From IMG/VR virus record IMGVR_UViG_2654587996_000002: DNA of 37,878 nt; one strand, 5' to 3'. Both the position numbers and the translations under genes were made by a program. Below the pieces are notes generated by a model, which was not told where the DNA came from, did not search any database, and saw only the letters and a program-made list of their open reading frames with translations. Positions 278 through 36,196 of this stretch are shown here, in pieces. The stretch is from a virus. Lineage: Duplodnaviria > Heunggongvirae > Uroviricota > Caudoviricetes. Within the stretch, counting starts at the first letter, position 1. Each line of letters begins with the position of its first letter.

Positions 278-2368
278 ATGTGGGTAACAGCAAAAGAATG
301 TGTTGGTCTTCCTGATTTACCAATGATGGAACATAACATTCGCCATCGACTCACAAAAGCAGCTGCGGGAAATGCAGCCATGTTACGCAAACGTAAGGGG
401 ACAAAAGCAATCGAATTTAATATCGATTGTTTGCCTTCTGGCGCACAACAAGTATTGCGTGAACGTTATGCCCTGCAACTGATGACGCAAAAAGCCGATG
501 AATCACCGGCTCCGGTGGTGACAAAGGCCAGACGCTCACCTGCCGTGGTTGATGCGGTGGAGGCATATCGCGGATCACCCCAACTGATGGTCGAACGCCT
601 CAATGCCCTGACTGAAAACCAACGTAAAGTGGCAGAGGCACGAATAGCGATCGTCAGCGAGGCGCTGAAAATCGCGCAACAACCCGGCTTTAGTTGCGCT
701 AAGGCTATCCGGTTCCTCGTTAACAGCCTGGCACGATCACAACTGGACGAACGCATTGTGGCAATGGTTGAAACGGCGAACGCCAAAAAGGGAAACAGCC
801 GCGTGTTGAGTGAAATAACGCTGAAACGCTGGATTGCGGCCTTTAACAAGGCACAGAACGCCGCTGAACGCCTGCTTTTACTGGCACCGGGTAAACGCCA
901 GGAAATAAAAGCCGAAGATATTAGCTGGTTGCCCGAGTTTCTGGCGCAGTATCGCCAGTCAAACGGCCGACCAATGACCGAGGCTTACGAGGATTTTGTT
1001 GCTGAATGGCAGCACCGGCACGCTGATGAGCCTTATATGCTCGATATCATGCCCTCTTATGACACCATTCGCCGCGCGATGAAGAAACTGCCGGAAGTGG
1101 TGAAACAAAAAGGCCGGGTGACCGGCAGTGAATACCGCCAGCTTGAGGGATTCACGCGCCGCGACTGGTCAAAAATGCCGGTGAATTATGTCTGGATTGG
1201 TGACGGTCACGGCATGAAGCTGAAATGCGCGCACCCGGTTCACGGGCGGCCATTCGCACCGGAAGTGACCTTTGTTATCGATGGTGGCACGCGCTTTGTG
1301 GTGGGCTGGAGCCTTGACCTGGCTGAAAATGTTTTCGCCGTAGCCGGTGCCATACAGCACGGCATTCGCCATCACGGCAAACCGTTTCTGTATTACTCGG
1401 ATAATGGCTCCGGGGAAACCGCCGACATCCTGGATAAGGAGATTGTGGGGATCCTGCCACGACTGGGGATTAATCACCCGACAGGGATTGCCGGTAACCC
1501 GCAGGGACGGGGCATTATCGAACGGCTTAACCGCACATTACCGATGCGCATAGCCCGTAAATACCGCACCTATTTCGGGAAAGGTGCAGATCGCGAGACG
1601 TTACGTAAAACCAACCGCGATTTACGCTCGGCATTCACTGCCCTGCAACAGGGCAAGCGGCTGAACGCCCGGCAGCAGTCAGCGATGCGTGATTTACCGT
1701 CCTGGTCTGAACTGATTGATGCCATTCGTGACGGCGTTGAGTGGTACAACAGCCGGCCGCACGATGAATTACCCATGAAGCCGAACGGCAAACATTACAG
1801 CCCGGCGGAGTTCAGAAAAAAACGCCTGGCGGAAGAGGACACGGAAATTGAATGGCTGTCCGATGTTGAACTGCGGGACATGTTCCGGCCGATGGTGGAA
1901 CGCCCTGTAAGACGCTGTGAAATACGCTGGCTGAATAATATTTACTACGCGCCCGAGCTGCGTGATGAACATGGCCGCAAAGTGCTTATCAGCTATGACA
2001 TTCATGATGCCGAACGAATTACCGTGCGTCGCCCGGATGGCAGCGTGATTTGCGAGGCGGTATGGGACGGCAATAAACGCGAAGCCTTCCCGGTCAGCGC
2101 AGAATACTACAAACAGCAGCAGCGCCTTAAAGGTATGCGTAAACGCGCAGAGGAAAAAATCCGTGATGCCGAGGATGAGGTTGTCAACGTGCTGGAGCAC
2201 AAGCCACAGGAGCCATGGCTGGAAAATATATACCGCCCTGTGGGTAATACAGTGACCGTTCAGCAACCGGTCGCTGAGGATGAACCTGATGAAGAATACG
2301 AGCGTAATTTCCAGCGGGGATTGCAGCTGCTTGAAGCGAAATTAAAAGAAAATGACCCTCTGGCCTGA
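278..2368 (+). CDS. Mu-type DDE transposase A
   Basis: 696 aa; N-terminus MWVTAKECVGLPDLP resembles Mu A (ELWVSPKECANLPGLP); size and position after ner match Mu A. Confidence 0.9.
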   Translation: MWVTAKECVGLPDLPMMEHNIRHRLTKAAAGNAAMLRKRKGTKAIEFNIDCLPSGAQQVLRERYALQLMTQKADESPAPVVTKARRSPAVVDAVEAYRGSPQLMVERLNALTENQRKVAEARIAIVSEALKIAQQPGFSCAKAIRFLVNSLARSQLDERIVAMVETANAKKGNSRVLSEITLKRWIAAFNKAQNAAERLLLLAPGKRQEIKAEDISWLPEFLAQYRQSNGRPMTEAYEDFVAEWQHRHADEPYMLDIMPSYDTIRRAMKKLPEVVKQKGRVTGSEYRQLEGFTRRDWSKMPVNYVWIGDGHGMKLKCAHPVHGRPFAPEVTFVIDGGTRFVVGWSLDLAENVFAVAGAIQHGIRHHGKPFLYYSDNGSGETADILDKEIVGILPRLGINHPTGIAGNPQGRGIIERLNRTLPMRIARKYRTYFGKGADRETLRKTNRDLRSAFTALQQGKRLNARQQSAMRDLPSWSELIDAIRDGVEWYNSRPHDELPMKPNGKHYSPAEFRKKRLAEEDTEIEWLSDVELRDMFRPMVERPVRRCEIRWLNNIYYAPELRDEHGRKVLISYDIHDAERITVRRPDGSVICEAVWDGNKREAFPVSAEYYKQQQRLKGMRKRAEEKIRDAEDEVVNVLEHKPQEPWLENIYRPVGNTVTVQQPVAEDEPDEEYERNFQRGLQLLEAKLKENDPLA

Positions 2369-2443: not shown

Positions 2444-3376
2444 ATGACCGATATAAACGATGTAATCAAGACCATTGATGAACTTATTGATGGCGGCGTA
2501 CTGACGCAGTATGCCATCGCCAGAGAGGCGGGAATTTCCGACGGCACATTATCGGCTTTCCGTAAGGGAAAATATAAAGGTGATAACGCTGCTGTGGCTG
2601 CTTCCCTGCGTTCCTGGTATGAGAACTGGAATAAACAAAGCGCACTGCCGGAACCGCCGCAGTTTGTGGAAACGCAGACAGTCCAGGAGCTGCGCGCGCT
2701 GTTTCAGGCGGTTCGCCTGATGGGCTGTATTAACGTCATTGTGGGCGTACCGGGTGTGGGTAAAACGGCCACGGCCCGCAATTACTGTCAGGAGCAACCG
2801 AACACCTGGATGATCACCCTGTCGCCCGCGCATTCCAGCGTCACGGAGTGTATGCTGGAGCTGGCAGAGGAACTGGGGATTGATTACACCCGCGCGAACA
2901 AGGGGGCGTTATCCCGCGCCATCCGCCGTCGCCTGATGGGAACGCGTGGACTGGTGATTGTTGATGAGGCGGATCATCTTGGTATTGACGGTCTGGAACA
3001 ACTGCGTGCAATCCAGGACGCCACGGGGATCGGGATGGTGCTTATTGGTAACCCGCGCGGACTGTTTAAGGGTGGACGCCGCACCGTTGATGATTTATCG
3101 CGCCTGTTCAGCCGTCTTGCCCGTACAAAACAACTTCGCAAGGCCAAAAAGGCGGATGTGCTGGCTATTGCCAGGGCATGGGGGATTAGTGGTGAGGCCG
3201 AGCTGGCTGTCATGCAGGCTATCGCTGAAAAGCCGGGAGCCTTACGCGTTCTGACACATACGCTTAACCAGGCGTGGATCACCGCCAGCGGTGAAGGTGC
3301 CGCGCTGACAGAAAAACATATTAATGCGGCCTTTAAAGAGGTTTATACCAACCCTGAATTACTCTCACAGGTGTGA
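2444..3376 (+). CDS. Mu B-like ATP-dependent target DNA activator (AAA+)
   Basis: 310 aa with Walker A GVPGVGKT and Walker B-like LVIVDEAD; N-terminal HTH-like region; immediately downstream of A. Confidence 0.88.
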   Translation: MTDINDVIKTIDELIDGGVLTQYAIAREAGISDGTLSAFRKGKYKGDNAAVAASLRSWYENWNKQSALPEPPQFVETQTVQELRALFQAVRLMGCINVIVGVPGVGKTATARNYCQEQPNTWMITLSPAHSSVTECMLELAEELGIDYTRANKGALSRAIRRRLMGTRGLVIVDEADHLGIDGLEQLRAIQDATGIGMVLIGNPRGLFKGGRRTVDDLSRLFSRLARTKQLRKAKKADVLAIARAWGISGEAELAVMQAIAEKPGALRVLTHTLNQAWITASGEGAALTEKHINAAFKEVYTNPELLSQV

Positions 3377-4246: not shown

Positions 4247-4777
4247 ATGGCAAAACGCGTTACAAAATTAAAGGCCGCAGCCGAGGCCGCACCGCAGACC
4301 CGCGAAGAAGTCAGCCGTGATATCCGCACCCTGGGCGATATTCAGCGAGAGGCGCTGCGCCTGGAAACGGCAATGAATGACGAGGTGGCTGAAATCACCG
4401 CCCGTTATACGCCGCAGATTGAAAATCTTAAAAAGCAAATCAAAGTGCTTTTTAAAGGGATTCAGGACTGGTGCAAAACCAACCGGGATGAGCTGACGAA
4501 CGGCGGCAAAACCAAAACAGCCAATCTGACCACCGGAACGGTGTCATGGCGGCTGGGAACGCCATCATGTAGCGTCAGCCGTGATGTGGAAGGTGTGATT
4601 GAAATGCTGCGCCGTATGGGGCTTGAGCGATTCATCCGCACGAAAGAGGAAGTGAACAAGGAAGCCGTCCTGGCGGAGCCGGATGCAGTGAAAGGCATTG
4701 CCGGTATTAAGGTGAATAAAGGCGCTGAAAGTTTTTATGTCGAGCCTTTTGAACAGGACGCCGGACTGAATAAATAA
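4247..4777 (+). CDS. gam: Gam host-nuclease inhibitor (Mu Gam / Ku-like DNA-end binding)
   Basis: 176 aa; motifs LETAMNDEVAEIT, WCKTNRDELTNGGKTKTANL and GLERFIRTKEEVNKEA align closely with recalled Mu Gam. Confidence 0.9.
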   Translation: MAKRVTKLKAAAEAAPQTREEVSRDIRTLGDIQREALRLETAMNDEVAEITARYTPQIENLKKQIKVLFKGIQDWCKTNRDELTNGGKTKTANLTTGTVSWRLGTPSCSVSRDVEGVIEMLRRMGLERFIRTKEEVNKEAVLAEPDAVKGIAGIKVNKGAESFYVEPFEQDAGLNK

Positions 4778-5420: not shown

Positions 5421-5954
5421 ATGATTGATGCAAAAGTGCTTGAAGGGGTTAAAAACTGGCTGAGTATTTACGGACGTCTGACCTGCGGTGTACTGGCTGA
5501 AAAAATGAATATGCCGCCATCCTCCATGGTTTATTTTCTGCGTGATGCGGTTGATGCAGGCGTGCTGACGGAATGTAACGGTTTTTATGATATTCCGCGT
5601 CCCCGCCCGGTGCAGCCGGTTCGTCGCAAATGCAGCCAGGAATGTGCGGCTGATGATGTTCAGTGGTGCAGCTTCAGAAAATCCCTGCCGTGGATTGAGG
5701 GGCATGATATTCCGTCGATGGCGTGGGAATTTGCTCAGGGCGTTCTGACCTGTGAAACCGTTTATGTGGTGGCTGAAGTTGATGAGCAGGCCATGAAAGA
5801 AGGCGTACCCCAGTTTGTGATGGCGTATATCGACATTCGCCTGGGTGTCATTATCTGCGGTTTAAGCGGCTGGAATATCACCGCGCGTGTTCTGCGCTAC
5901 CTGATTGTTGACCGGACAGCAGCGCCTGCCGGGATATCTGCGGAGGTGGCGTAA
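5421..5954 (+). CDS. hypothetical early protein, possible N-terminal winged-helix
   Basis: GGAGG 8 nt upstream of ATG; 4-nt gap from previous gene; Cys-rich middle region. Confidence 0.5.
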   Translation: MIDAKVLEGVKNWLSIYGRLTCGVLAEKMNMPPSSMVYFLRDAVDAGVLTECNGFYDIPRPRPVQPVRRKCSQECAADDVQWCSFRKSLPWIEGHDIPSMAWEFAQGVLTCETVYVVAEVDEQAMKEGVPQFVMAYIDIRLGVIICGLSGWNITARVLRYLIVDRTAAPAGISAEVA

Positions 5955-6472: not shown

Positions 6473-7024
6473 ATGATGAAATTACAACCCATGGGACGAA
6501 AAGGTCGCGCCCCCGCTCATGTCCGTCCGTGGATACCTGAAGAAGATGCGCTGCTGATTGCGCTTTATTCATCCACCCCGGTTAAGGATATTGCTGCCAG
6601 AATAAAAAGAACTGTCTGGGCTGTATATAACCGGACTGGTGTATTGCGCAGTTCATACCCGGAGTTACTGAAATATAAACACCCCAGATTTACACCTGAT
6701 GAAGATAAGTTTATTCGAAAAAATGCCAGAACAATGACCTGCCAGCAAATGGGAGAATATCTCGGACGTAATAAAGATTCTGTCAGATGTCGGGCAGGAA
6801 TGATTGGTGCCGGATTAACAAAGTGCGGAGAGTTACGCCCCGGCACGCGCATATCTGATGATGATGTCCGTCTCATACGTGCGCTGCGTGATTCCGATTA
6901 CCCACGCCGTCTGTCATTCCGGGAAATTGGCGAAAAGTTTGGAATATCTGAACATTCTGCTCACGCAGTTTATTACCGTCGCCGGACCGCCGAGGACGCT
7001 GTATTACGGGAGTTAACGCCATGA
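6473..7024 (+). CDS. putative DNA-binding protein with tandem Myb/SANT-like or HTH repeats
   Basis: Three repeats of similar pattern: WIPEEDALLIALY...IAARIKRTVWAVYNR, FTPDEDKFIRKNARTMTCQQMGEYLGRNKDSVRCRAG, ISDDDVRLIRALRDS...FREIGEKFGISEHSAHAVYYRRR. Confidence 0.5.
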   Translation: MMKLQPMGRKGRAPAHVRPWIPEEDALLIALYSSTPVKDIAARIKRTVWAVYNRTGVLRSSYPELLKYKHPRFTPDEDKFIRKNARTMTCQQMGEYLGRNKDSVRCRAGMIGAGLTKCGELRPGTRISDDDVRLIRALRDSDYPRRLSFREIGEKFGISEHSAHAVYYRRRTAEDAVLRELTP

Positions 7025-7577: not shown

Positions 7578-7767
7578 TCTATCCGCTGGATGGGCGCGCC
7601 CTCTGATGGCTAAGAAGCATCATTTTTTTAAAACAGGCGATAATATCAGTATATGTAGGCGGTGGTTATATCTGGCTCATAATCGCGAGCCGGATACATT
7701 TGAAAGCCCTGATGACTGTGCCGAATGCCGCAGAAGACTGAATAAGGAGAAAGATAATGGACAGTAG
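7570..7767 (+). CDS. hypothetical small Cys-containing protein, possible zinc ribbon (65 aa)
   Basis: Cys pattern ICRRW ... CAEC; overlaps neighbours on both sides. Confidence 0.4.
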   Translation: MNSLSAGWARPLMAKKHHFFKTGDNISICRRWLYLAHNREPDTFESPDDCAECRRRLNKEKDNGQ

Positions 7768-8053
7768 TTCGCAGTTGTTCTGGTGTTTATATATCACATC
7801 GTTTTTCGGTGCATTCGTCATTACACGATGGCTGTGCCGGAAAGTTATCAGTATTTTTCATAAAAAATACCTGATTGGGCTGGCGACGACTTCTCTGATT
7901 AATGCACTTGCCAGATATCATAAGGGGGAATACTACTCAAGAATAAAAACTGATGATGGTTTTAATATTTTTGTGATTCCTCCGGAGTATCGGGTTCAGC
8001 TCGATCGGGAAAATAATATCTATCATATCAGCAGGAGTGTTGATACAGCATGA
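7757..8053 (+). CDS. hypothetical membrane-anchored protein (98 aa)
   Basis: AGGAG 7 nt upstream of ATG; N-terminal hydrophobic segment LFWCLYITSFFGAFVIT; stop overlaps start of next gene. Confidence 0.5.
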   Translation: MDSSSQLFWCLYITSFFGAFVITRWLCRKVISIFHKKYLIGLATTSLINALARYHKGEYYSRIKTDDGFNIFVIPPEYRVQLDRENNIYHISRSVDTA

Positions 8054-8559
8054 GAGGGAAACTGATATCCGCTATTCATGTGGCAAAGCGCGAGCTTGCC
8101 CTGGATGATGAGATCTACACATCCGTACTACTGGAAGCCACCGGCAAAACCAGTTGCCGGGATATGTCACCGGATGAGTTATCCCGCGTGCTGGATGTTT
8201 TCAAAAAACGCGGTTTTAAAGTGCGTCAGAAACCGGTTAACCGGGCCTTAAAACCGGGTACGGTGACCGCCAAAATTCGCGCCATCTGGAAGGTGATGCA
8301 CCGGCAGGGCTTTATCTCTGATGGCGGGGAAACAGCCCTTAACCACTGGGTGAAATCGCAGACGGCCGCGCAGAACGGCGGCGAAGGTGTGGCTAACTGG
8401 CAGTGGCTGGAACAACAACCCGCACTGGCCTCGGATGTGCTGGAGCGTCTCAAACGCTGGCACCGCCGCAAGATGCTGGATGTGCTGGGGATGTCAGCGC
8501 GTACAGTGATGAGTTATGAGCACGTTTGCAGGCTGTATGAAGAATCCTCCCCCTTTTAA
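8050..8559 (+). CDS. gemA: GemA / Mu gp16-like regulatory protein (DUF1018-like)
   Basis: N-terminal pattern KLISAIHVAKRELALDDEIY...LEATGKTSCRDMSPDELSRVLDVFKKRGF resembles Mu gp16 family; last gene before the early terminator. Confidence 0.65.
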   Translation: MRGKLISAIHVAKRELALDDEIYTSVLLEATGKTSCRDMSPDELSRVLDVFKKRGFKVRQKPVNRALKPGTVTAKIRAIWKVMHRQGFISDGGETALNHWVKSQTAAQNGGEGVANWQWLEQQPALASDVLERLKRWHRRKMLDVLGMSARTVMSYEHVCRLYEESSPF

Positions 8560-8563
8560 CCCC

Positions 8564-8594
8564 AAATCCCGCCACAGCGCGGGATTTTTATTTT
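8564..8594 (+). terminator. Rho-independent terminator at end of early operon
   Basis: Hairpin ATCCCGC-CACAGC-GCGGGAT followed by TTTTATTTT, directly after the GemA-like stop. Confidence 0.75.
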
Positions 8595-8629
8595 AAACTT
8601 GCCCTGTGTAATGATGACCGGAGGCGGGT

Positions 8630-9052
8630 ATGGCTGAAACACAGATGAGCATGTTTGGTGACAGCGAACAGCTGCACGCGCTGATTGACCGTCTGGATGA
8701 TATTCCTGATGATGAGCTGAAAAAGAACTGGCCCGGCACGCTGCGGGACCTGGTTGATGTGATAAGTGCTGAACTGCACCGTCAGGGGATTGAACCTGCT
8801 CAGGCGGGAATGCTTGCCCGTAAAGTTGCGGCCGCACAGGCCGGGTACATGGGCGGGCGTGGTTATTATCTCCCGGTTGGTGAATCCCTTTTCACCGAAC
8901 TGCGCAATAATGAAATTTTTTCCCGCTGGAGCCAGGGCGAAAAAATTGAAACCCTGCGCCGCCACTACCAGATGTCAGAGACGCAGATTTACTCCGTTAT
9001 CCGCAACCAGCGTCGCCTGCATCAGGAGCGCACGCAGCCCCGGCTTTTCTGA
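8630..9052 (+). CDS. Mor/C-family transcriptional activator (middle/late gene activator)
   Basis: 140 aa; GGRGYYLPVG ... IETLRRHYQMSETQIYSVIRNQRR matches Mor/C family pattern (GG..YIP.G ... C-terminal HTH); GGAGG RBS; follows early terminator. Confidence 0.75.
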   Translation: MAETQMSMFGDSEQLHALIDRLDDIPDDELKKNWPGTLRDLVDVISAELHRQGIEPAQAGMLARKVAAAQAGYMGGRGYYLPVGESLFTELRNNEIFSRWSQGEKIETLRRHYQMSETQIYSVIRNQRRLHQERTQPRLF

Positions 9053-9123
9053 TATTCCGCAAATCCTGCCCCCTTTTTCCCACGGTTACGCTGACTCAGA
9101 GAACACCATGAGACAGCGTAACA

Positions 9124-9624
9124 ATGCCAAAACTCCCCGCGCCACTGCGTAAAAAGCTGATTGCCCTTGTTCTGGCCGGAGCCGGAACGTTCACCATTGC
9201 CACGCACTACACCGGCTACTGGGAAGGGAAAGAAAACACCACGTACATTGATCCCACCGGCACCCCCACCATCTGCCACGGTCATACCGGTCCGGATGTG
9301 AAACCGGGGATGACAAAAACCGATGAAGAATGTCTGGAGCTGCTGGAAAAGGACATGAAATGGGCCTTTGCGGCCATTGATCGTTATGTTCAGGTGCCGC
9401 TTACCCGTGGTCAGACGGTGGCGCTGGCCTCCTGGATTTTCTGGGCCGGTGAAACGAACTTTCGCAACTCCACGCTCCTGCGCCTTATCAATGCCGGGCA
9501 GATGCCTGCGTCCTGTAAGCAGTACATCCGCTGGATTTATTCGAAGGGGGTGAAACTCCCCGGTCTTGAGGCCCGCCGTTCGGCGGATGAATGGTTATGT
9601 CGCTACGATTTGCCGAAAGTCTGA
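9124..9624 (+). CDS. phage lysozyme (GH24-like endolysin) with SAR-like N-terminal segment
   Basis: YWEGKENTTYIDPTGTPTICHGHTG lysozyme-like core; N-terminus LIALVLAGAGTFTIATHYTG is weakly hydrophobic and Gly/Ala-rich, as in signal-anchor-release endolysins. Confidence 0.75.
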   Translation: MPKLPAPLRKKLIALVLAGAGTFTIATHYTGYWEGKENTTYIDPTGTPTICHGHTGPDVKPGMTKTDEECLELLEKDMKWAFAAIDRYVQVPLTRGQTVALASWIFWAGETNFRNSTLLRLINAGQMPASCKQYIRWIYSKGVKLPGLEARRSADEWLCRYDLPKV

Positions 9625-9697
9625 ACCGCTTCTGGCGACCGCTCATGATTGCGCTGCTGTGTGCCGTTGTGCTGCTGCGGGGTGTGCTGTGGCTGCG

Positions 9698-10087
9698 GTG
9701 AATAATCCCTTACCGGCCCTGATTGCCGGAGGGTGTATGGCGGCGCTGGGGGTGATGAGCGTGCTGGCTGCCGTGGTATGGGGAATGCACCAGAAGACAC
9801 AGCGCCTCGAAGACAATAACCAGGTGCTTGTGCGTGAACGGGACGAAGCCCGTCTGGTACTGGCAAATCAGCAACGCACCCTGCAACTCATTTCACAAAT
9901 CAGCAAGGCGGCCACGAATGAAAAACAGCAGAACATGCAGCACAGCGAGGAACAGCAGAGCATTGTCCGCCGGTCGCTGGCAACGGTGCCTGCGGCCGCT
10001 GTGCCTGTGCCTGATGATGTGGCTGACCGGGTGCGGCGGGCCGTCTGTGAAATACGTGCCGGTGAAGCCGGTGCCGATCCCCGCTGA
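9698..10087 (+). CDS. i-spanin (Rz-like inner membrane spanin); start uncertain (GTG 9698 or ATG 9737)
   Basis: N-terminal TM (LPALIAGGCMAALGVMSVLAAVVWG) then charged, coiled-coil-like region (QRLEDNNQVLVRERDEARLVLANQQRTLQ); directly after lysozyme. Confidence 0.55.
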   Translation: MNNPLPALIAGGCMAALGVMSVLAAVVWGMHQKTQRLEDNNQVLVRERDEARLVLANQQRTLQLISQISKAATNEKQQNMQHSEEQQSIVRRSLATVPAAAVPVPDDVADRVRRAVCEIRAGEAGADPR

Positions 10088-10289
10088 ATGGCTGGCTGAC
10101 TGCCTGGTCCCTCCTGTGCCGCAGCCATTCACGTTTGGCGCATCGGTCACTTACAACCTGCAACTGCTGGCGGTGATTAAGAACTGCAACGTGGACAAGG
10201 CCAGCATCCGACGTCTGGAGGCACAGCGACAGCATGAATTTACTGATATGGCCGGAACGACTGCTGTTCCGGCAGGAAAGACGAAGTAA
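9918..10289 (+). CDS. o-spanin (Rz1-like outer membrane lipoprotein) overlapping i-spanin in +1 frame
   Basis: Lipobox-like LTGC after hydrophobic CLRPLCLCLMMW; Pro-rich mature region (VKYVPVKPVPIPAEW...VPPVPQP); starts inside and extends past i-spanin. Alternative TTG start at 9963. Confidence 0.55.
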   Translation: MKNSRTCSTARNSRALSAGRWQRCLRPLCLCLMMWLTGCGGPSVKYVPVKPVPIPAEWLADCLVPPVPQPFTFGASVTYNLQLLAVIKNCNVDKASIRRLEAQRQHEFTDMAGTTAVPAGKTK

Positions 10290-10299
10290 GGAAAAAGGT

Positions 10300-10527
10300 A
10301 TGGATGATTCAGATTGTGCTCAGGCAGTCGTGGAGCGGGCAACAGAACGCGCCCTTTGTGACCGGCTGACACGTAAGCGCCGGGTGGTGGAAACACCGGG
10401 CAGGCGTGTATGCGCGGACTGCGGGGGTGACATTCCGGCCGCCCGTCTGGTTGCCGTGCCGGATGCCATCCGTTGTGTGAACTGCCAGAACATCATGGAG
10501 GCCGGTCATGTGGGTCAGCATCGTTAA
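10300..10527 (+). CDS. TraR/DksA-family C4 zinc-finger protein
   Basis: CADCGGDIPAARL...IRCVNCQ four-Cys motif; good RBS (AAAAAGG) before ATG 10300. Confidence 0.65.
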   Translation: MDDSDCAQAVVERATERALCDRLTRKRRVVETPGRRVCADCGGDIPAARLVAVPDAIRCVNCQNIMEAGHVGQHR

Positions 10528-11687: not shown

Positions 11688-13351
11688 TGAATAACGCCGA
11701 AGAACTCTCCCCCTTACTGACGAATACCGTCTCCACCCGCAAAATTGATCTGGCCGGTGAAAAAGCCCTGCTGGGCGTGGATGTGCCGGACAGCCTTGAT
11801 TTGCCCGGTGATATGCCGGTGTTTCTGGATTATCAGGCCCGCTGGTTTGCGGATGAAAGTCAGGTCTGCATCGCGGAAAAATCCCGCCGCACCGGGCTTA
11901 CCTGGGCGGAAGCCGGGCGTAACGTCATTACCGCTGCAAAACCGAAGCGGCGTGGTGGCCGTAATGTGTTTTATGTGGGGTCAAAGCAGGAGATGGCGCT
12001 GGAATATATTTCTGCCTGCGCGCTGTTCTCCCGTGCCTTTAACCAGCTGGCAGATGCTGATGTGTATGAACAGACCTTCTGGGATCGGGATAAAAAAGAA
12101 GAAATTCTGACCTACATGATCCGCTTTCCGAACAGTGGATTCAAAATTCAGGCACTGTCTTCCCGTCCGTCAAACCTGCGCGGCCTTCAGGGGGATGTGG
12201 TGATTGATGAAGCCGCGTTCCACGAGTCACTGGATGAGCTTCTCAAGGCGGCAATGGCGCTTACCATGTGGGGCGCACGCGTGCGCATTATTTCCACGCA
12301 TAACGGCGTCGATAATCTGTTTAATCAGTACATTCAGGAGGCCCGCGAGGGGCGCAAGGATTACAGCGTCCACCGCATAACCCTGGATGATGCCATTGCG
12401 GACGGATTATACCGTCGTATCTGTTACGTCACCGATCAGGAATGGTCACCGGAAAGTGAGCAGAAATGGCGTGATGATCTCTACAAAAACGCCCCGACCC
12501 GTGAGGATGCCGACGAGGAATACGGCTGTATCCCGAAAAAATCCGGCGGTGCCTATATTCCCCACGCGCTTATTGAAATGGCGATGATCCGTGACATCCC
12601 GATTCTGACGTTTGAAGCCCCGGACGACTTCATCAGCCGTGCCGCATGGCTGCGCGAATCGGAAGTTTTAACCTGGTGTGAAGAACATTTAAAACCGCTT
12701 ACAGAGAAATTAAATCCCCGTTCCCGCTTCAGCTTCGGGGAAGACTTTGCCCGCACCGGTGACCTGTCCTGCTTTGTGCTGCTGGAAATCACCGAATCCC
12801 TGGCAAAGCGCGAGGTGTTTCGCGTGGAGCTGCGCAACCTGCCGTATGCCCAGCAGGAACAGGTGATGATGTACATCCTGACCCGCGTTCCGGCGCTGGT
12901 CGGTGCAGCGTTCGACGCCACCGGTAACGGCGGCTATCTGGCAGAGGCCGCACTGCTGGCCTTTGGCCCGGACATCATCGACTGCGTGATGTTGTCGCCG
13001 AAGTGGTACGGCGAGTGGATGCCAAAACTGAAAGCCGAGTTTGAAGATCAGAATATCCTCGTCGCGCGCCATCAGACCACGCTTGATGATTTGCGCCATG
13101 TGAAGGTGGTGAACGGTATCCCGCAAATCGACAAGGGGCGCACGAAGGACCAGAACGCAACGGCTGCGAACGCCCGCCGCCATGGTGATTTTGCCGTGGC
13201 GCTCTGTATGGCAAACCGGGCGTCATATATGGAGGGCTTCATCCTGGATGAATCAGCCTGTCAGGCGCTGCCGGAGCGGTCGCGGGCAATGGAGGGCGGT
13301 TATCGTGATGACGATGAGGCATATCATGAATTTGATCGGGGGTGCTGGTAG
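11687..13351 (+). CDS. terminase large subunit (Mu gp28-like)
   Basis: 554 aa; position between gp27-like and portal; Walker-B-like VVIDEAAF; size typical of Mu-type TerL. Confidence 0.8.
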   Translation: MNNAEELSPLLTNTVSTRKIDLAGEKALLGVDVPDSLDLPGDMPVFLDYQARWFADESQVCIAEKSRRTGLTWAEAGRNVITAAKPKRRGGRNVFYVGSKQEMALEYISACALFSRAFNQLADADVYEQTFWDRDKKEEILTYMIRFPNSGFKIQALSSRPSNLRGLQGDVVIDEAAFHESLDELLKAAMALTMWGARVRIISTHNGVDNLFNQYIQEAREGRKDYSVHRITLDDAIADGLYRRICYVTDQEWSPESEQKWRDDLYKNAPTREDADEEYGCIPKKSGGAYIPHALIEMAMIRDIPILTFEAPDDFISRAAWLRESEVLTWCEEHLKPLTEKLNPRSRFSFGEDFARTGDLSCFVLLEITESLAKREVFRVELRNLPYAQQEQVMMYILTRVPALVGAAFDATGNGGYLAEAALLAFGPDIIDCVMLSPKWYGEWMPKLKAEFEDQNILVARHQTTLDDLRHVKVVNGIPQIDKGRTKDQNATAANARRHGDFAVALCMANRASYMEGFILDESACQALPERSRAMEGGYRDDDEAYHEFDRGCW

Positions 13352-16850: not shown

Positions 16851-17027
16851 TGGTTTAAGGTATACAAACACATTACCTTACCCTCTTCAGGCGCGTGTCG
16901 TGATTTTCTAACCTGTATTTAACGGGCTTTAAAATCTGCGTGAAGCGCCTTTCTCATTTTACCCCTGTCAGCACTTTCTGAAGTCCCGCAAAACCTGCCC
17001 TGAAAAACACCGGCTTATGCTGCCGGA

Positions 17028-18152
17028 ATGAAGACGAAAAACACGCCCAAACTTGCTTATGCCATTCTGAATGCCATCAGCCTGTCCGCAGACGGGGACG
17101 GTGACTGGTGTCAGATCATGCCAGCCGGTCGGGTAAAGGCCCGTGACGGTCGCCCGGAAAAACCGGCTGAAGGCTGGCTGATTAACCGTGCGACCGTTGA
17201 GCGCATGGTATCCCGGGTTGTGGCGCTCAATCAGCCGGTAAAAATTGACTACAACCACCAGAGCCTGATTAAGGGGCATCCGGCACCGGCTGCCGGTTTT
17301 GTCATGGCCTCACCGGAAAACTTCCGCTTCAGTGAAGAGCGGGGTTTTGAAGTGCGTCCGAAGTGGAACCCTCCGGCCATTGAACACCTGCGCAATAACG
17401 AGTTTCCCTGGTTTTCCCCGGTGATTGGTTATGACGAAATCACCGGTGAACCTGTTGAGCTTCGGATGCTGGCTATTACCGGTGACCCCGGTCTGACTGG
17501 CATGAATCCTGTCGCCGCACTGTCGGCGGATGACCTTTATAACGCCTTAAACCCTCCTTTAAAGGACACCTCCATGAATGAGCAATTACGCCAGTTGCTG
17601 ACGGCGCTCGGTCTGACCGTGGCTGACGGTGACGAATTTACGCCGGAACTGGGCACGGCGGCGCTGTCTGCCCTTACCGGGATCAAAACCCGTGCGGATG
17701 CGCACGACACCCTGAAAACGCAGGTTGCCAGCCTGTCAGCAGAGCTGGAAACCGCAAAAGGCACACCAACTGGCGGCACTATTGATCTGACGAAATACGT
17801 GCCCGTTGAGACGTATAACGCCCTGCGTACCGAATATGTCGCGCTGTCGGCACAGCACGGCAGCACCACGCTGGAGCAGTTGCTGGATAAGGCCGAGTCC
17901 GAAGGACGCATTTTCAAAAGCGAACGCGGATACATGGAAGGACTCGGACAACAGATTGGCGTTGCAGCACTTTCTGCACAGCTTGACGCCCGCCAGCCGG
18001 TTGCGGCTCTGACCACTCTTCAGACCGACACCGTGACCGTGCCGGATAAAAAGACCGCCACTGCTGTGCTGTCGGCTGAAGATATCGCCGCCGCCCATCT
18101 GCTGGGTAAAACCGAAGCCGAGTTCCTGAAAATGAAAGAGGAAATGCAATAA
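17028..18152 (+). CDS. Mu I-like head protease / scaffold protein
   Basis: 374 aa; helical Ala/Leu-rich C-terminal half typical of scaffold; stop overlaps start of major head gene; preceded by 177-nt intergenic region. Confidence 0.75.
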   Translation: MKTKNTPKLAYAILNAISLSADGDGDWCQIMPAGRVKARDGRPEKPAEGWLINRATVERMVSRVVALNQPVKIDYNHQSLIKGHPAPAAGFVMASPENFRFSEERGFEVRPKWNPPAIEHLRNNEFPWFSPVIGYDEITGEPVELRMLAITGDPGLTGMNPVAALSADDLYNALNPPLKDTSMNEQLRQLLTALGLTVADGDEFTPELGTAALSALTGIKTRADAHDTLKTQVASLSAELETAKGTPTGGTIDLTKYVPVETYNALRTEYVALSAQHGSTTLEQLLDKAESEGRIFKSERGYMEGLGQQIGVAALSAQLDARQPVAALTTLQTDTVTVPDKKTATAVLSAEDIAAAHLLGKTEAEFLKMKEEMQ

Positions 18153-23284: not shown

Positions 23285-25342
23285 ATGGCAAAAAACCTGA
23301 AAGCCTCCCTGATTGTCGATTTACTCGGCAATATTTCCGCCAAATCCCGCCAGTGGTCACAGGAGCTGGGGGCGTTCTCCCGTTCCGGCAGGACAGGCCT
23401 GGGTGGTCTTGGAAATGCAGCCCGCCGGGCCGGTCAGGAAACGGAACTTGTCGGCTCCCGTATGCAGCGAACGCTTGCCGGTGTTCGTGGCAGCATCCGC
23501 ACGGTAACGTCAGATTTTGACCGCCTGCAGGGCAGCATTACCGGCACCATCGGGCGGATAAGCAACCTTTACGGGATGCTGGCGGGAGGGGCTGCGGTCT
23601 ACGGTTTTAATAAAGCCTTTATCCGCCCGGCCGCAGAGATGGAGAACTATATTCTGCGTCTCAACGCCATTAATCATGGCGATACGGCAAAAACGGAAGC
23701 AGTGAAAGCTTGGGCAGTACAGAACGCCAAAGACACCACCTGGGGGCTGGCGGGGGTTATGCAGGAATACGCCTCCAGTCGCGGGTTTGGCATGAGTGAC
23801 AGGGAAGCCCGTCGCTTTATTACCATGCTTCAGGATCAGGGCGGCTATCACGGCTGGTCACTGTCAGATGCACAGGGTGCGTCCCTGCAACTCAAACAGA
23901 TGTTTGCCCGCCAGAGTATCCAGGCAGCGGACGCCAATATTCTGACCGGATACGGGATTAACGTTTACCAGTTACTGGCCGATAAGCTGGGCGTAAACCA
24001 GAAGATCATCCGTGAGAAAGGCGAAAAAGGAAAACTGGGGCCGGACAGCATTCGCCTGTTATTTCAGGTGATGGCCGAACAGGCAAAAGGTGCCCAGAAA
24101 AACGCCATGAATTCCTGGACGGGAATGACGTCCATGATGGGCGACGTCTGGGATCAGTTTGCCCGTGAAGTGATGGCAAAGGGACCGTTTGACAGCCTGA
24201 AAAAGAGCCTGAAAGGCTTTCTGGATTATGCTGATGCGGCACAGAAAAGCGGCTTACAGGATAAGCTGGCCACACAGACGGCCTCAGCCCTGAATCAGGG
24301 ATTCGAGTATGCCAGAGACGCTGCAACCGGCTTTTACCGGGTCATTCAGAAAGTCAGGGAAACGCTTCAGGCACTGCGCGACGCCGGTTATGGCGATGCA
24401 CTGGATCGTATTGGTCAGGGGGCGCAGACCGCCGCAAAATACCTGATGTATATGTATCTCGCCTCCCGCGCGCTGAAGGTGCTCAGGTTTGCGGGGACGG
24501 GGGCATTACGTCTTGGTGCAACCCCCTTACGCTATGGTATGGCGATGACCTCCGTGCTGACGTCGCCCTTCCGCAAACCGCAGACCACTGTGCCGGGAAC
24601 GCAGCCCGGACGCGCTGGCCGCTTCCTGAATTTCCTTACCGGGGTAAATCCTGCTGCCGTTCAGCCCGTGCTGGTCACCAACTGGCCTGCGGGTGGCATG
24701 GCCTCAGGTGGCGGGGATGTGGTGGTCAGCGGTGACGGCAAAACCGTGCGAGGCCGTAAAAAACGCGGCCCCGGACGCGGGCGGGGTGTCACGACCGTCG
24801 TGACCGCCGGTGAGCAGCTGGCGGAGAGCGCCGGTAAACAGGGCTTCTTCGGCCGTATGATGAGCCGTGCCGGTGGTCTGCTAACGGCGGCCGGAAACCG
24901 CATGGGGCTGGGGCGTTTTGCCGGGCTGTTCCGTGGTGCCGGTCGGCTGGGTGGTGGTGCCCTGTGGGCCGGTGCCATGGCGGCTCCTGTATTGCTGGAC
25001 AGCAGCGCCAGCGCAGCCGATAAAGCCGGTGCCGTGGGTTCCCTTGCCGGAAGTATCGCCGGTGGCGCGCTGGGGGCTGCTGCCGGTCCGGTCGGGGTTG
25101 CCATTGGTTCCACGGTGGGCAGCTATCTCGGTGATTATCTGGGGGGCTGGCTGACGCAGGCCTGGCAGAAACTGCGTGGCAGCAGTGACGAAAACGGCGG
25201 ACAGGCCACCGCGAAAACCGCCGCACGGGTGGAGCTTGTGGCCCCTGAAGGCTGGCGGGCGCGCAGTATTGATGTGGATGATACCGCACAGCATGGCCTG
25301 GATGTGAACGTCTGGAACGGAGGGAACTATGGCCTCTACTGA
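23285..25342 (+). CDS. tail tape measure protein
   Basis: 685 aa, helical N-terminal two-thirds and Gly/Ala-rich C-terminal third; located after chaperone. Confidence 0.8.
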   Translation: MAKNLKASLIVDLLGNISAKSRQWSQELGAFSRSGRTGLGGLGNAARRAGQETELVGSRMQRTLAGVRGSIRTVTSDFDRLQGSITGTIGRISNLYGMLAGGAAVYGFNKAFIRPAAEMENYILRLNAINHGDTAKTEAVKAWAVQNAKDTTWGLAGVMQEYASSRGFGMSDREARRFITMLQDQGGYHGWSLSDAQGASLQLKQMFARQSIQAADANILTGYGINVYQLLADKLGVNQKIIREKGEKGKLGPDSIRLLFQVMAEQAKGAQKNAMNSWTGMTSMMGDVWDQFAREVMAKGPFDSLKKSLKGFLDYADAAQKSGLQDKLATQTASALNQGFEYARDAATGFYRVIQKVRETLQALRDAGYGDALDRIGQGAQTAAKYLMYMYLASRALKVLRFAGTGALRLGATPLRYGMAMTSVLTSPFRKPQTTVPGTQPGRAGRFLNFLTGVNPAAVQPVLVTNWPAGGMASGGGDVVVSGDGKTVRGRKKRGPGRGRGVTTVVTAGEQLAESAGKQGFFGRMMSRAGGLLTAAGNRMGLGRFAGLFRGAGRLGGGALWAGAMAAPVLLDSSASAADKAGAVGSLAGSIAGGALGAAAGPVGVAIGSTVGSYLGDYLGGWLTQAWQKLRGSSDENGGQATAKTAARVELVAPEGWRARSIDVDDTAQHGLDVNVWNGGNYGLY

Positions 25343-32422: not shown

Positions 32423-32995
32423 ATGCTGATTGGGTATATCAGGGTGTCAACAAATGACCAGAATACGGCGCTACAGAGAAATGCGCTGGAATGTGCAGGA
32501 TGTGAGCTGTTTTTCGAAGACAGAATAAGCGGTAAGACAAGGGAACGTCCCGGCCTTAAACGCGCATTAAAGCGACTCCGGCCAGGGGATACCCTGCTGG
32601 TCTGGAAACTGGATCGTCTTGGACGTAGTATGCAGCACCTTGTCCTTTTAACAGAAGAACTCCGGCAGCGCGGCGTTAACTTCCGCAGCATTACGGACAA
32701 TATTGATACATCCACTCCCATGGGACGTTTCTTTTTCCATATAATGGGCGCACTGGCGGAAATGGAGCGGGAACTCATTATTGAACGTACACGCGCGGGT
32801 CTTGCTGCTGCCCGTGCTCAGGGGCGTCATGGCGGCAGACCTCAGAAACTGACAGGGAAAGAGCGGGAGCAAATCGCCCGTTTGCTGGCTAATGGCGAGT
32901 CCCGTAAACAAATCGCACTGATATTTGATATTGGCCTGTCCACCCTTTATCGTTATTTTCCTGCCTCACCGGCTCCGTCACCAAAAGTACCGTGA
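32423..32995 (+). CDS. gin: Gin-family serine DNA invertase
   Basis: MLIGYIRVSTNDQNTALQRNAL...GDTLLVWKLDRLGRSM...MGRFFFHIMGALAEMERELIIERT closely matches recalled Mu Gin / Hin; AGGAG RBS. Confidence 0.92.
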   Translation: MLIGYIRVSTNDQNTALQRNALECAGCELFFEDRISGKTRERPGLKRALKRLRPGDTLLVWKLDRLGRSMQHLVLLTEELRQRGVNFRSITDNIDTSTPMGRFFFHIMGALAEMERELIIERTRAGLAAARAQGRHGGRPQKLTGKEREQIARLLANGESRKQIALIFDIGLSTLYRYFPASPAPSPKVP

Positions 32996-33080
32996 CGCTT
33001 TTTTGAATTTCCGCAAAACACATATTTTTCAGCGGTCGCTATTCTGACTCTGTTTAATTCAGAAACAGGCAGAAAAGACG

Positions 33081-35129
33081 ATGTCAGACTCCCAGTGGAA
33101 AATGCTCTCCGCCATGCCCGGAGAGTTTTCAGTCAAGGTTGCCGGTGGCACGGTGGCATTTATTGAAAGTCCTTTCAGGCCTTCGGGTAATAAAGGGGGG
33201 ATCACCTTCGCAGACTGCGTGATCCGCTTCAGCACGAAAGAGCCATTATGGGTAATGCCGGTATCCGGCAATCCCAGCGCAGAAATCACCAGTTCAGGTG
33301 TGACCGGCATTATTCCGATCACATCTGACGTGGCCGGAACACTCACGCCTTCTGACTGGAATGCACCGGATAACGCCGGACCGTCTGGCGGTACAAATGG
33401 CAGCAGTACAGAGCCGGAGTATTACTATGTGCTTCCACTGGCCGGGCAGTCCAACGGGATGGCCTACGGTGAAGGGCTTCCGCTACCGGCTTCATTCGAC
33501 CGCCCTGAACCGCGCATTAAGCAACTGGCACGTCGCAGCACGGTAACGCCCGATGGTACGTCGTGCACATATAACGATATCATTCCCGCAGACCACTGCC
33601 TGCATGATGTGCAGGACATGAGCGGGATAAACCACCCGAAAGCTGACCTGAGTAAAGGGCAGTATGGTTGTGTCGGCCAGGGGCTGCATATTGCCAAAAA
33701 ACTGCTGCCTTATATTCCGCAGAATGCCGGGATACTTCTGGTTCCCTGCTGTCGTGGTGCTTCGGCATTCACCACCGGTGATGACGGCTCATTCAGTGAG
33801 GCCAGCGGTGCTTCCGCTGATTCTTCACGCTGGGGAGCCGGTAAACCCCTGTATCATGACCTGGTAAGCCGTACCAGAGCGGCGCTGGCGAAGAACCCGA
33901 AAAACAAACTTCTGGCAGTGGTCTGGATGCAGGGAGAAGCAGACCTTGCATCGGGAAGTCAGCAGCATAATGGTTTATTCACAGCCATGGTTCAGCAGTT
34001 CAGAACCGACCTGTCTCCACTTGCAGCGCAGTGCGTGAGTGGAAATGCTGCCACGGTGCCGTGGATTTGTGGTGACACCACGTATTACTGGAAAAACACG
34101 TATGCCACGCAGTATGAAACAGTCTATGGAGCATATAAAAATCTGACCGCACAGAATATTTTCTTTGTGCCGTTCCTGACGGATGAGAATGGACAGAACA
34201 CGCCAACGAATGCTCCGGTGGAAGACCCGGATATTGTGGCTGTCGGGTATTACGGTGCGGCATCCCGTACCCAGGGCAGTTTTGTCTCCACACAGCGTGA
34301 CAGCCATTTCAGCTCATGGGCACGCAGGGGCATCATTTCTGACCGTCTGGCCTCAGCCATTCTGCTCCATGCGGGACGCACGGCTGAAGTTATGGGCGGA
34401 CAGGCCGTGCCGCCGGATGAAAAACCATCCCCTGACACGCCATCAACGCCGTCAACGGACGGGAAATCAATGACGACGCTGTTTTCTTACCGCGCATCGG
34501 AGTCAGGCGGAGCACTGACGCCACAGGGCTGGGGGGCGGAAGGCGGTAGTGCTGCTGTTGTGGATGATGTCGGTGCCAGCGGGGGCAAGGCGCTGAAGCT
34601 GACAAAACAGACCGGAAAGTCATGGTTTATGCAGCATGATGCCGGTAATGGTGCCGACCTGCTGGAAAAAGGTGGCCTTGTCAGCTGTCGTTTTAAACTT
34701 GATGGCGCGCTTACGGCTAATCAGTACGCACTGGCGCTGTACTGGCCGGTTTCTTCGCTTCCTCAGGGCGTCACACTGGAAGGTAATGCCGGTCATAACC
34801 TGCTGGCATCGTTTTACGTTCAGAGCGATGCCACAGACCTTATCGTGATGTACCACAAGGGTAATCCAGACCAGAACACGAAGCTGGGTTCATTCGGTGC
34901 ATTTAATAACGAGTGGCATACGCTGGCATTCCGTTTTGCCGGTAATAACAGCATTCAGGTGACGCCGGTGATTGATGGTAAGAACGGGGAACCGTTCATG
35001 CTGTCTCAGTCACCTGTCGGTTCTTTTGCGGCAGACAAGTTACGCCTGACCGATATCACCAGTAATGCAACGTATCCGGTACTGATTGACAGCATTTTGG
35101 TGGAAGTGAATAACCCGTCAGCAGGATAA
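33081..35129 (+). CDS. large accessory protein: SASA-like carbohydrate O-acetylesterase core plus C-terminal lectin/LamG-like domain
   Basis: 682 aa; LPLAGQSNGMAYGEG (GQSN motif) and VVWMQGEADLASG (QGE motif) as in sialate O-acetylesterase-like esterases; Gly/Ser/Thr/Pro linkers; C-terminal ~200 aa resembles concanavalin/LamG-type carbohydrate-binding folds. Confidence 0.6.
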   Translation: MSDSQWKMLSAMPGEFSVKVAGGTVAFIESPFRPSGNKGGITFADCVIRFSTKEPLWVMPVSGNPSAEITSSGVTGIIPITSDVAGTLTPSDWNAPDNAGPSGGTNGSSTEPEYYYVLPLAGQSNGMAYGEGLPLPASFDRPEPRIKQLARRSTVTPDGTSCTYNDIIPADHCLHDVQDMSGINHPKADLSKGQYGCVGQGLHIAKKLLPYIPQNAGILLVPCCRGASAFTTGDDGSFSEASGASADSSRWGAGKPLYHDLVSRTRAALAKNPKNKLLAVVWMQGEADLASGSQQHNGLFTAMVQQFRTDLSPLAAQCVSGNAATVPWICGDTTYYWKNTYATQYETVYGAYKNLTAQNIFFVPFLTDENGQNTPTNAPVEDPDIVAVGYYGAASRTQGSFVSTQRDSHFSSWARRGIISDRLASAILLHAGRTAEVMGGQAVPPDEKPSPDTPSTPSTDGKSMTTLFSYRASESGGALTPQGWGAEGGSAAVVDDVGASGGKALKLTKQTGKSWFMQHDAGNGADLLEKGGLVSCRFKLDGALTANQYALALYWPVSSLPQGVTLEGNAGHNLLASFYVQSDATDLIVMYHKGNPDQNTKLGSFGAFNNEWHTLAFRFAGNNSIQVTPVIDGKNGEPFMLSQSPVGSFAADKLRLTDITSNATYPVLIDSILVEVNNPSAG

Positions 35130-36012: not shown

Positions 36013-36120
36013 TTGCACGAATTACATCAGAAAATCAGGCGTTCCATAACTTCATAGCTGATGAATCACCTCCCTGAATCATTGTTGATGACTTTTCAAT
36101 CTATTTGTTGTATCAATTAA

Positions 36121-36152
36121 ACAAATCGAATCGATCGTTTTTGTCGATCGAT
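36121..36152. promoter_or_regulatory. GATC-containing palindrome upstream of com-like gene (candidate Dam-sensitive operator, by analogy to Mu mom control region)
   Basis: AATCGATCG-TTTTTGT-CGATCGATT: perfect 9-bp inverted repeat carrying two GATC sites, about 45-75 bp upstream of the com-like start. Confidence 0.4.
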
Positions 36153-36196
36153 TAGGCGAGAAAGATATCATCAACAAAGCAGGAGGTTATGCGGCC

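Follow-up and report, generated by a model that had tools for sequence, protein, structure and literature searches.

The transcription cascade of phage Mu, with its three phases, is a textbook case. In the Mu genome record, the end of the early region is followed by mor, which overlaps the end of gemA, by a terminator coinciding with the middle promoter Pm, by gp18-gp20, by C and by the lysozyme promoter Plys, so that C is the fourth gene of the Mor-dependent middle operon. Mor and C belong to one family of small proteins (~100-150 aa), acidic in the N-terminal half and basic in the C-terminal half (PMC2582627). Late transcription of Mu requires two clamp-binding motifs of C, namely Qx[D/E][L/M]F near the N-terminus and QPDLF near the C-terminus (PMC12867686). 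Another Mu-like element, the prophage Sp18 of Escherichia coli O157:H7 Sakai, is predicted to be intact, and its DNA is efficiently packaged into particles (PMC2669165).

An Sp18-type prophage with a single Mor/C-family gene

The window, i.e. the whole 37.9-kb stretch of DNA analyzed here, consists of a nearly whole Sp18-type Mu-like prophage, as established by Pfam scans (Table 1). The left edge of the window lies inside or at the Ner gene, so that the repressor end (~1.4 kb) is outside. The last open reading frame (37450-37878) is a piece of a host usher gene, which places the right end of the prophage near 37404-37449. Rfam and tRNA scans of the window were both empty. The module at 7700-9700, which encompasses gemA, the activator gene and the lysozyme gene, is 97.7% identical to a prophage of E. 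coli AST198 and 87-90% identical to Sp18, and is present in 230 of the 5,426 complete E. coli genomes (~4%). Sp18 shows the same gene order (ECs_4960, ECs_4961, ECs_4962) and encodes an activator 84% identical to that of the window; past com, Sp18 carries Mom whereas the window carries a C5 cytosine methylase.

A preliminary description of this DNA had stated that the early operon ends at a terminator past a GemA-like gene and that a single 140-aa Mor/C-family gene precedes the lysozyme gene, in contrast to the two-step layout of Mu, and the present analysis bears out all of these points. The terminator hairpin (AAATCCCGC-CACAGC-GCGGGATTT, 8564-8587, followed by TTATTTT) ranks first among the plus-strand terminators in the terminator scan and has a predicted RNA folding energy of -13.5 kcal/mol (z = -3.7 against shuffles). 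Its arms are almost invariant across 29 relatives from IMG/VR and Sp18, with variable loop and flanks; the exceptions among the relatives are one T-to-C change in the left arm and one left arm lost by recombination (L009). Only 70 nt, without any open reading frame, separate the gemA stop from the start of the activator gene. The position of Mor, overlapping the end of gemA, which is occupied in Mu, is empty in the window, and a Mu-type middle operon (gp18-gp20 and C) is absent between the early terminator and the lys promoter. The gene orders of the Mu record and of the window thus differ as claimed: unlike Mu C, the activator gene of the window stands alone behind the early terminator with a promoter-like element.

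Table 1. Genes and candidate regulatory elements of the window, and corresponding cassettes of related lineages
Feature	Coordinates	Strand	Sequence or evidence
Ner-type winged helix	1-267		Pfam
Transposase A	278-2368		Pfam
Transposition protein B	2444-3376		Pfam
Gam	4247-4777		Pfam
gp11-like	5421-5954		Pfam
183-aa protein	6473-7024		PHROG 323, annotated transcriptional regulator
GemA-like gene, last of early operon	8050-8559	+	Pfam GemA, E = 6.5e-30
Operator-like box, candidate activator site	8560-8573	+	CCCCAAATCCCGCC; overlaps terminator left arm
Intrinsic terminator	8564-8597	+	9-bp stem AAATCCCGC/GCGGGATTT, 6-nt loop, T-rich tail
Candidate -10 of activator gene	8594-8599	+	TAAACT; predicted start near 8606; no -35
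Single Mor/C-family activator, 140 aa	8630-9052	+	Pfam Mor PF08765, E = 6.7e-31
Candidate late operator of lys	9047-9072	+	TTCTGATATTCCGCAAATCCTGCCCC; 21/26 identical to I operator
Candidate -10 of lys	9087-9092	+	TACGCT; 26 nt from AAATCC
Lysozyme, first gene of lysis/late operon	9124-9624	+	Pfam Phage_lysozyme, E = 1.1e-35
Mu-type packaging, head and tail genes	from 11106		Pfam
Candidate late promoter of gene I	16976-17021	+	operator TTCTGAAGTCCCGCAAAACCTGCCCT, 16976-17001; -10 TATGCT, 17016-17021
Gin-type invertase	32423-32995		Pfam
Candidate third late promoter	33001-33045	+	TTTTGAATTTCCGCAAAAC, 25 nt, TATTCT; upstream of 682-aa ORF
682-aa ORF	33081-35129		
Com	36197-36382		Pfam
Kluyvera cassette			AATCCCGC-caacgt-GCGGGATT-ttttg-TATACT
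Erwinia cassette			TCCCGC-cactgt-GCGGGA-tttttg-TATACT
Edwardsiella cassette			AAAATCCCGC-taatcg-GCGGGATTTT-tta-TATAAT
Enterobacteriaceae MAG cassette			ATTCCCGC-ctgaat-GCGGGAAT-tttg-TATACT

The activator is a probable counterpart of Mu C

[quoted passage not shown] Residues 1-70 carry a net charge of -6 and residues 71-140 one of +4, in agreement with the division of the family proteins into an acidic and a basic half. Within the family, the protein is 40% identical to Mu C (gp21; PDB 9L0X, 9VW8) over 136 residues and only 28% identical to Mu Mor (gp17; PDB 1RR7). Searches of PDB chains gave C (9l0x/9vw8) at 2e-28 (102 bits) and Mor (1rr7) at 2.5e-11 (46.7 bits), and in an identity matrix the protein groups with C-like proteins, whereas the protein of one related locus (L035) groups with Mor.

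The two proteins of 140 aa, that of the window and Mu C, align through the glycine linker and the C-terminal DNA-binding region. An alignment that includes Mu C, Mu Mor and the activators of Sp18 and Pmp9 shows invariant G75, G76, Y80, P82, G84, Y121, I124 and R128; G75-G76 is the glycine pair of the β-strand linker, and the C-terminal helix-turn-helix region lies downstream of it. Both terminal clamp-type motifs of Mu C have putative counterparts at the aligned positions, QMSMF (residues 5-9) and QPRLF (residues 136-140), each one residue off the consensus. As in Mu, the gene lies directly upstream of the lysozyme promoter. By its greater similarity to C than to Mor, and by candidate promoters of the Mu late type before lys and I (box at about -40, weak -10 and no -35; see below), the protein is assigned to the C-type (late) rather than the Mor-type (middle) subgroup.

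One activator is the common state outside the genus Muvirus

The preliminary description had left two alternatives, one activator performing both steps or a second activator located elsewhere. A profile HMM of Mu Mor, Mu C and the window protein was searched against 877 stop-to-stop open reading frames of at least 25 aa from all six frames of the window; the sole match was the activator itself (8618-9049, E = 2.9e-68), with the runner-up at E = 0.86, and Pfam scans of all plausible small genes of the window detected no further Mor match. No second activator was thus found inside the window.

Given that ~1.4 kb of the repressor-side left end is outside the window, one could still suppose that a second Mor/C gene is located there, or that the element is a regulatory cripple that lost mor. 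Complete Sp18, however, contains one Mor/C open reading frame overall: its repressor end, like the rest of the prophage, has no second copy, and the only regulator at that end is the repressor. Furthermore, the same layout is found in the 230 E. coli genomes mentioned above and across genera, and, with respect to the cripple version, Sp18 DNA is packaged (PMC2669165), which argues that a single activator suffices. We consider both forms of this explanation extremely improbable.

To place the locus among Mu-like phages, the activator was used as the query in a tblastn search of 50,697 phage records, 48 of which were matched. Records with two matches were confined to the Mu genus (Mu, D108, SfMu, PhiR68_1, Mu_3F6 and the Yersinia Mu-likes), whereas single matches were obtained for Mu-likes with an inserted Stx phage, Pasteurella phage Pmp9, the Pseudoalteromonas HS6 and Shewanella MuM16 phages, Vibrio phages, BcepMu, phiE255, and Ralstonia and Klebsiella phages. 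The sensitivity of the search was adequate because Mor, with 28% identity, was detected by this query. A separate protein-based scan with one genome per species, using a query alignment without Mor, yielded 15 loci, distributed over Kluyvera, Erwinia, Edwardsiella, an Enterobacteriaceae MAG, eight Pasteurellaceae and a Lysobacteraceae MAG. When Sp18, Pmp9 and Kp4866-3 are added, exactly one Mor/C open reading frame is detected by HMM search within ±10 kb in 18 of 18 loci, and a GemA homolog is encoded upstream of the activator in 17 of them (the exception is L048). Even the activators that are 63-75% identical to Mu C (L041, L037 and L036) are present in a single copy, and in these three loci small unrelated genes, not mor, are located between gemA and the activator gene.

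With no paralog in the window, in Sp18 or within ±10 kb in the 17 other loci, the first alternative of the preliminary description is the one upheld: very probably, there is one activator and no Mor step. The layout, which could have been taken for a peculiarity of this element, is ordinary among Mu-likes outside the genus Muvirus. A single activator thus appears to be the common state of these phages, and the distribution of matches indicates that a Mor step exists only in the genus of Mu itself. One activator would be enough for most relatives of Mu, among them a prophage family carried by ~4% of complete E. coli genomes and by O157 strains. Existing knowledge of the Mor/C protein family itself is unchanged.

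Control might still be two-tier if a non-homologous early protein, either the product of 6473-7024 or GemA, acted in place of Mor. The former matches PHROG 323 (E = 1.2e-51), gives weak helix-turn-helix matches at residues 130-164 and has no counterpart in Mu gp12. Nevertheless, the regulator name of PHROG 323 is an annotation label only; homologs of the protein were found only in Sp18, apart from a weak match in one locus that lacks the hairpin-promoter cassette described below, and none is encoded in the cassette-bearing loci of Kluyvera, Erwinia and Edwardsiella. As for GemA, we know of no promoter binding by this protein. A role of either protein as a substitute for Mor seems quite unlikely.

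Candidate late promoters of the lysozyme gene and gene I

The upstream regions of the lysozyme gene, of gene I and of the com-like gene had been listed in the preliminary description as candidate activator-dependent promoters. In pairwise best-match tests of the three regions, a motif shared by lys and I was recovered, and the com region (36013-36196) lacked it. The best 14-mer shared by lys and I is identical at 13 of 14 positions, a value reached by none of 300 shuffles (p < 0.003), whereas the best matches of the com region with lys and I have p > 0.7; regular-expression and position weight matrix (PWM) searches of the com region were empty as well.

At both lys and I the distance to the -10 element is 26 nt, and neither promoter has a -35 element. 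Scored with a PWM of the lys and I operators, the I promoter reaches 37.2 against a null maximum of 19; the I start codon (17028) begins at the seventh nucleotide past its -10. Both operators and the I promoter as a whole are retained in Sp18, in which the lys box reads AAAGCC instead of the AAATCC of the window. Among the 29 IMG/VR relatives, the lys operator and -10 are constant and the stretch between them is variable. The sequence CTGCCCCCTTTTTCCCACGG, singled out in the preliminary description near ~9060-9080, is indeed present, at 9066-9085, but within the lys intergenic region it is the part that varies most among close relatives, the spacer between the operator and the -10 element. The core AAATCCYGCC cannot be considered promoter-specific in itself since three more exact copies are found, all within coding regions.

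The lys promoter is visibly related to that of Mu. In the alignment, CAAATCCTGCC...TTACGCTGACTCAGAGAA of lys corresponds to ATAATCCCGCAC (the C box)...TTAGACTGCCATCAGAGAA of the annotated Mu Plys feature, and both promoters lack a -35 and have a weak -10 at 26-27 nt from a box. CATAAyCCC, 27 nt from the -10, is common to the four Mu late promoters. The boxes themselves differ: the window operator is of the form TGAw-N6-CAAA followed by yCCyGCC, and that of Mu is TTAT-N5-6-ATAA followed by CCCC. An operator of the same overall form, TGAAACnTCACAAACTCAC, is located before both lys and I in Pasteurellaceae. Taken together, these comparisons make the lys promoter an apparent homolog of Mu Plys, and there is a high likelihood that lys and I share an operator for the activator, which would bind it across the -35 region and activate σ70 RNA polymerase there.

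The terminator resembles the operator of the activator

The region upstream of the activator gene contains a feature that adds to the preliminary description: the terminator looks like an operator and is trailed by a promoter-like -10. The box CCCCAAATCCCGCC is identical to the lys box CCGCAAATCCTGCC at 12 of 14 positions (p = 0.003, shuffled regions), and the predicted start near 8606 would give a 24-nt leader carrying GGAGG. In Sp18, the hairpin together with TAAACTT differs from that of the window at one loop position; from the hairpin through TTTTTATTTTAAACTT this is the only difference between the window-type and Sp18-type alleles, and from the next base onward the leaders, up to the start codon, are unrelated. 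The retention of the segment from the hairpin to TTTTTATTTTAAACTT next to an unrelated leader points to TAAACT as a functional -10.

Comparable cassettes were found, by protein homology alone, in four lineages whose activators are 44-49% identical to that of the window (Kluyvera, Erwinia, Edwardsiella and the Enterobacteriaceae MAG; Table 1). In these lineages the arm sequence is kept although the loops differ and the upstream gene is not the same; the (A)ATCCCGC arm recurs in Kluyvera and Edwardsiella and is shortened to TCCCGC in Erwinia. Each has a near-consensus -10 located 27-28 nt from the box, without a -35, and their own lys promoters have a distance of 27 nt. Four further lineages, in which TATAAT or TATACT lies at 28-29 nt, came from scanning viral contigs for the pattern, and one of the four encodes a Mor-like protein; these inform only on the spacing and the -10 because the scan selected for the arms. 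The hairpin pattern alone is not diagnostic either, given that the loci recovered with it are mostly unrelated terminators and 64 of the 80 have no Mor/C gene. Covariation of the own box with the late boxes across lineages is uninformative as the core AATCCC is conserved everywhere. Pasteurellaceae relatives have neither the hairpin nor a shared box before their single activator gene.

A related design can be recognized in Mu, where a predicted terminator (9179-9200) lies inside the annotated Mor-dependent Pm (9163-9233), so that the fusion of a terminator with an activator-dependent promoter appears to be shared. The details differ: the hairpin arms of the window, of the AATCCCGC type, resemble the C box of Mu Plys and not the AAAGCCGG of Pm, and the distance from the hairpin to the -10 is shorter in the window than in Pm. 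A Pm-like geometry was initially favored for the window, with a start at 8619, the center of the hairpin dyad 43.5 bp before it and TGTAAT (8607-8612) as the -10; in addition, CCTGTGTAATGATGACCG resembles CCTGTGATGAATAACCG of Mu. This candidate was rejected: TGTAAT and the whole CCTGTGTAATGATGACCG stretch are absent from the Sp18-type allele, the leader would be 11 nt, and the published Pm positions give TATCCT as the Mu -10, which aligns here with TGCCCT, not a promoter element.

The simplest alternative to a promoter in the terminator is that the hairpin is only a leaky terminator or attenuator, that TAAACT is not part of a promoter, that the activator is made only from early transcripts escaping termination, and that termination efficiency sets the timing of its synthesis without autoregulation. 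In accord with this explanation, a strong terminator lies directly past gemA, and the need for termination could by itself explain the conserved GC-rich stem. The putative own promoter is also imperfect: TAAACT is a weak -10, only the proximal half of the operator is present, the distal half (TTCTGAwrT) being absent, and the box lies 30 nt from the -10, compared with 26 nt at lys and I and 27-29 nt in the relatives. With four extra base pairs, an activator that has to touch RNA polymerase would normally be out of phase with it. Synthesis by read-through also has parallels. In KS10 (gp27), BcepMu and Kp4866-3, as in the window, one Mor/C protein is encoded past gemA and ahead of the late genes, but its gene overlaps or abuts gemA without a terminator, in place of the terminator and promoter-like cassette that intervene in the window; with no terminator to separate it from gemA, the activator gene of these phages is simply an early gene, located inside the early operon in KS10 (PMC2628397) and in the Klebsiella phage Kp4866-3. 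Read-through alone, however, does not readily account for the at least 8 lineages with diverged leaders in which a -10-like hexamer (TATAAT, TATACT or TAAACT) keeps its distance from the hairpin, nor for the conservation of the arm sequence, beyond pairing, across lineages with activators 44-49% identical to that of the window. We therefore regard this explanation as rather unlikely. That the activator gene is autoregulated from a promoter embedded in the terminator is a closer call, which we would put at slightly short of even.

A tentative model of the regulatory circuit

Because the left arm of the hairpin holds CAAATCCCGCC and is followed by the -10-like TAAACT, we propose the following scheme. 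The activator would bind a bipartite operator of ~26 bp, with the consensus TTCTGAwrTyCCGCAAAwCCyGCC, whose promoter-proximal half lies 26 nt upstream of the weak -10 of promoters that have no -35. Early transcription from Pe would mostly stop at the hairpin past gemA, and rare read-through of the terminator would supply the first activator molecules without a Mor step. These molecules would then bind the proximal operator half (CAAATCCCGCC) in the left arm of the hairpin and direct RNA polymerase to the activator's own -35-less promoter, establishing a positive feedback, and the rising level of activator would turn on lys (lysis and packaging), I (head) and possibly the operon from 33081 in parallel. 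It seems reasonably probable that a sole Mor/C activator, a counterpart of Mu C, acting on the lys/I operator and on its own terminator-embedded promoter, is the joint explanation of the locus.

A further extension of this model is more speculative and, in our view, has perhaps one chance in three: the hairpin would end the early operon as RNA and, as DNA, offer its left arm as the operator of the activator, so that a little read-through would trip a self-amplifying latch in place of Mor; the cassette, which many enterobacterial Mu-likes have, would be ancestral, and the Mor-to-C cascade of Mu would have arisen from it by duplication of the activator gene and retuning of the hairpin. If the terminator-embedded promoter is indeed autoregulated, the same 24 bp would combine a terminator and a positive-feedback operator in a compact timing device, and a concrete route from a one-step to a two-step cascade would become apparent. 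What seems modestly new here is a defined late operator, together with a terminator resembling the operator of the activator itself, i.e. a variant wiring of a known system.

Other promoter candidates

The operator and -10 positions given in Table 1 allow annotation of the late promoters of Sp18-type prophages. Beyond lys and I, the one further intergenic candidate obtained with the PWM, at 33001-33045, has a score of 15.2, which taken alone is within the null range; the equivalent site of Sp18 (CTGAATTAACGCAAAAT, 25 nt, TATGAT) has an unrelated spacer. Weak to moderate confidence can be assigned to a late promoter at this position.

The region upstream of com is nearly identical in Sp18, is rich in GATC and contains no operator-like box, unlike the Mu cascade, in which the com/mom promoter is C-dependent. 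Within com, AAATCCTGCC at 36341 was considered as a promoter and discarded, being located just before the methylase start codon and absent from Sp18. A P-gene promoter like PP of Mu was likewise rejected, with zero PWM matches within the N-like gene. In the tape-measure gene, the segment 23331-23351 resembles a full operator without a -10, and its distal half is altered in Sp18.

Predicted late promoters and operator-like sequences

In the window, the ATG of the protease/scaffold gene I begins at the seventh nucleotide past the predicted -10 element (TATGCT-gccgga-ATG, 17016-17030), and the same 6-nt gap separates the two elements in Sp18, the related prophage of E. coli O157:H7 Sakai (L033, 18898-18912), and in three Pasteurellaceae relatives (upstream of gene I in L046, L047 and L049). 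Given this spacing, the head operon mRNA is predicted to be leaderless, in contrast to Mu and the Kluyvera-type relatives, in which the leader is approximately 26 nt long.

The core of the late operator, AAATCCYGCC, occurs five times in the window, compared to 0.17 occurrences expected from shuffles; three of these five exact copies are located within coding regions, all on the plus strand (11879-11888, 23342-23351 and 36341-36350). The second of the three is part of a nearly full late-operator sequence early in the tape-measure gene (ATATTTCCGCCAAATCCCGCC, 23331-23351), and no -10 element was found downstream of it. A possible third activator-dependent promoter lies at 33001-33045, after the invertase gene and ahead of a 682-aa ORF; both the box and the -10 element recur in Sp18 at the same spacing, despite the different spacer sequence.

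Features of the window outside the activator gene
Feature	Coordinates	Assignment and context
Early-region protein, 183 aa	6473-7024	PHROG 323 ('transcriptional regulator'); weak helix-turn-helix matches near the C-terminus
TraR/DksA-type C4 zinc-finger gene	10234-10527	TIGR02419, E = 5e-19; within the lysis and late operon
682-aa ORF	downstream of 33001-33045	SASA esterase + DUF6645
Com-like zinc-ribbon gene	36197-36382	upstream member of a pair spanning 36197-37403
C5 cytosine DNA methylase, 350 aa	within 36197-37403	Pfam DNA_methylase, E = 1.2e-42
Outer-membrane usher gene fragment	37450-37878	Pfam Usher, E = 1e-14; right end

Known and putative regulatory proteins

In the single Mor/C-family activator, QMSMF (residues 5-9, 8642-8656) and QPRLF (residues 136-140, 9035-9049) lie where Mu C carries its two beta-clamp-binding motifs, which suggests that this single-activator phage may still couple late transcription to replication.

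Homologs of the TraR/DksA-type protein were detected in 12 of the 18 examined relatives that have a single activator, and no such gene was seen among the annotated genes of Mu. Since TraR/DksA-type proteins bind at the secondary channel of RNA polymerase, this protein could contribute to the late reprogramming of transcription. Mu gp12 offers no counterpart to the 183-aa early-region protein, which, among the loci examined, is limited to the Sp18 group.

The end of the Com-like gene overlaps the start of the methylase gene by 32 nt. In Mu and Sp18, the position behind com is occupied by Mom; thus, a Com-type translational activator may here control a different DNA-modification enzyme.

Module boundary and window ends

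In three IMG/VR relatives (L009, L013 and L019), mosaic junctions either coincide exactly with the 5' edge of the terminator hairpin that precedes the activator gene (approximately 8560-8575 in the window) or fall within that edge. In two of these, AAATCCCGCC is joined directly to unrelated upstream genes, and in one, the left arm of the hairpin is wholly lost. These junctions indicate that the hairpin marks a module boundary.

Because the left end of the window (position 1) is truncated at the Ner gene, the window contains neither the repressor nor the left attachment end. The usher fragment at the right end is part of a host gene that the inserted prophage has interrupted.
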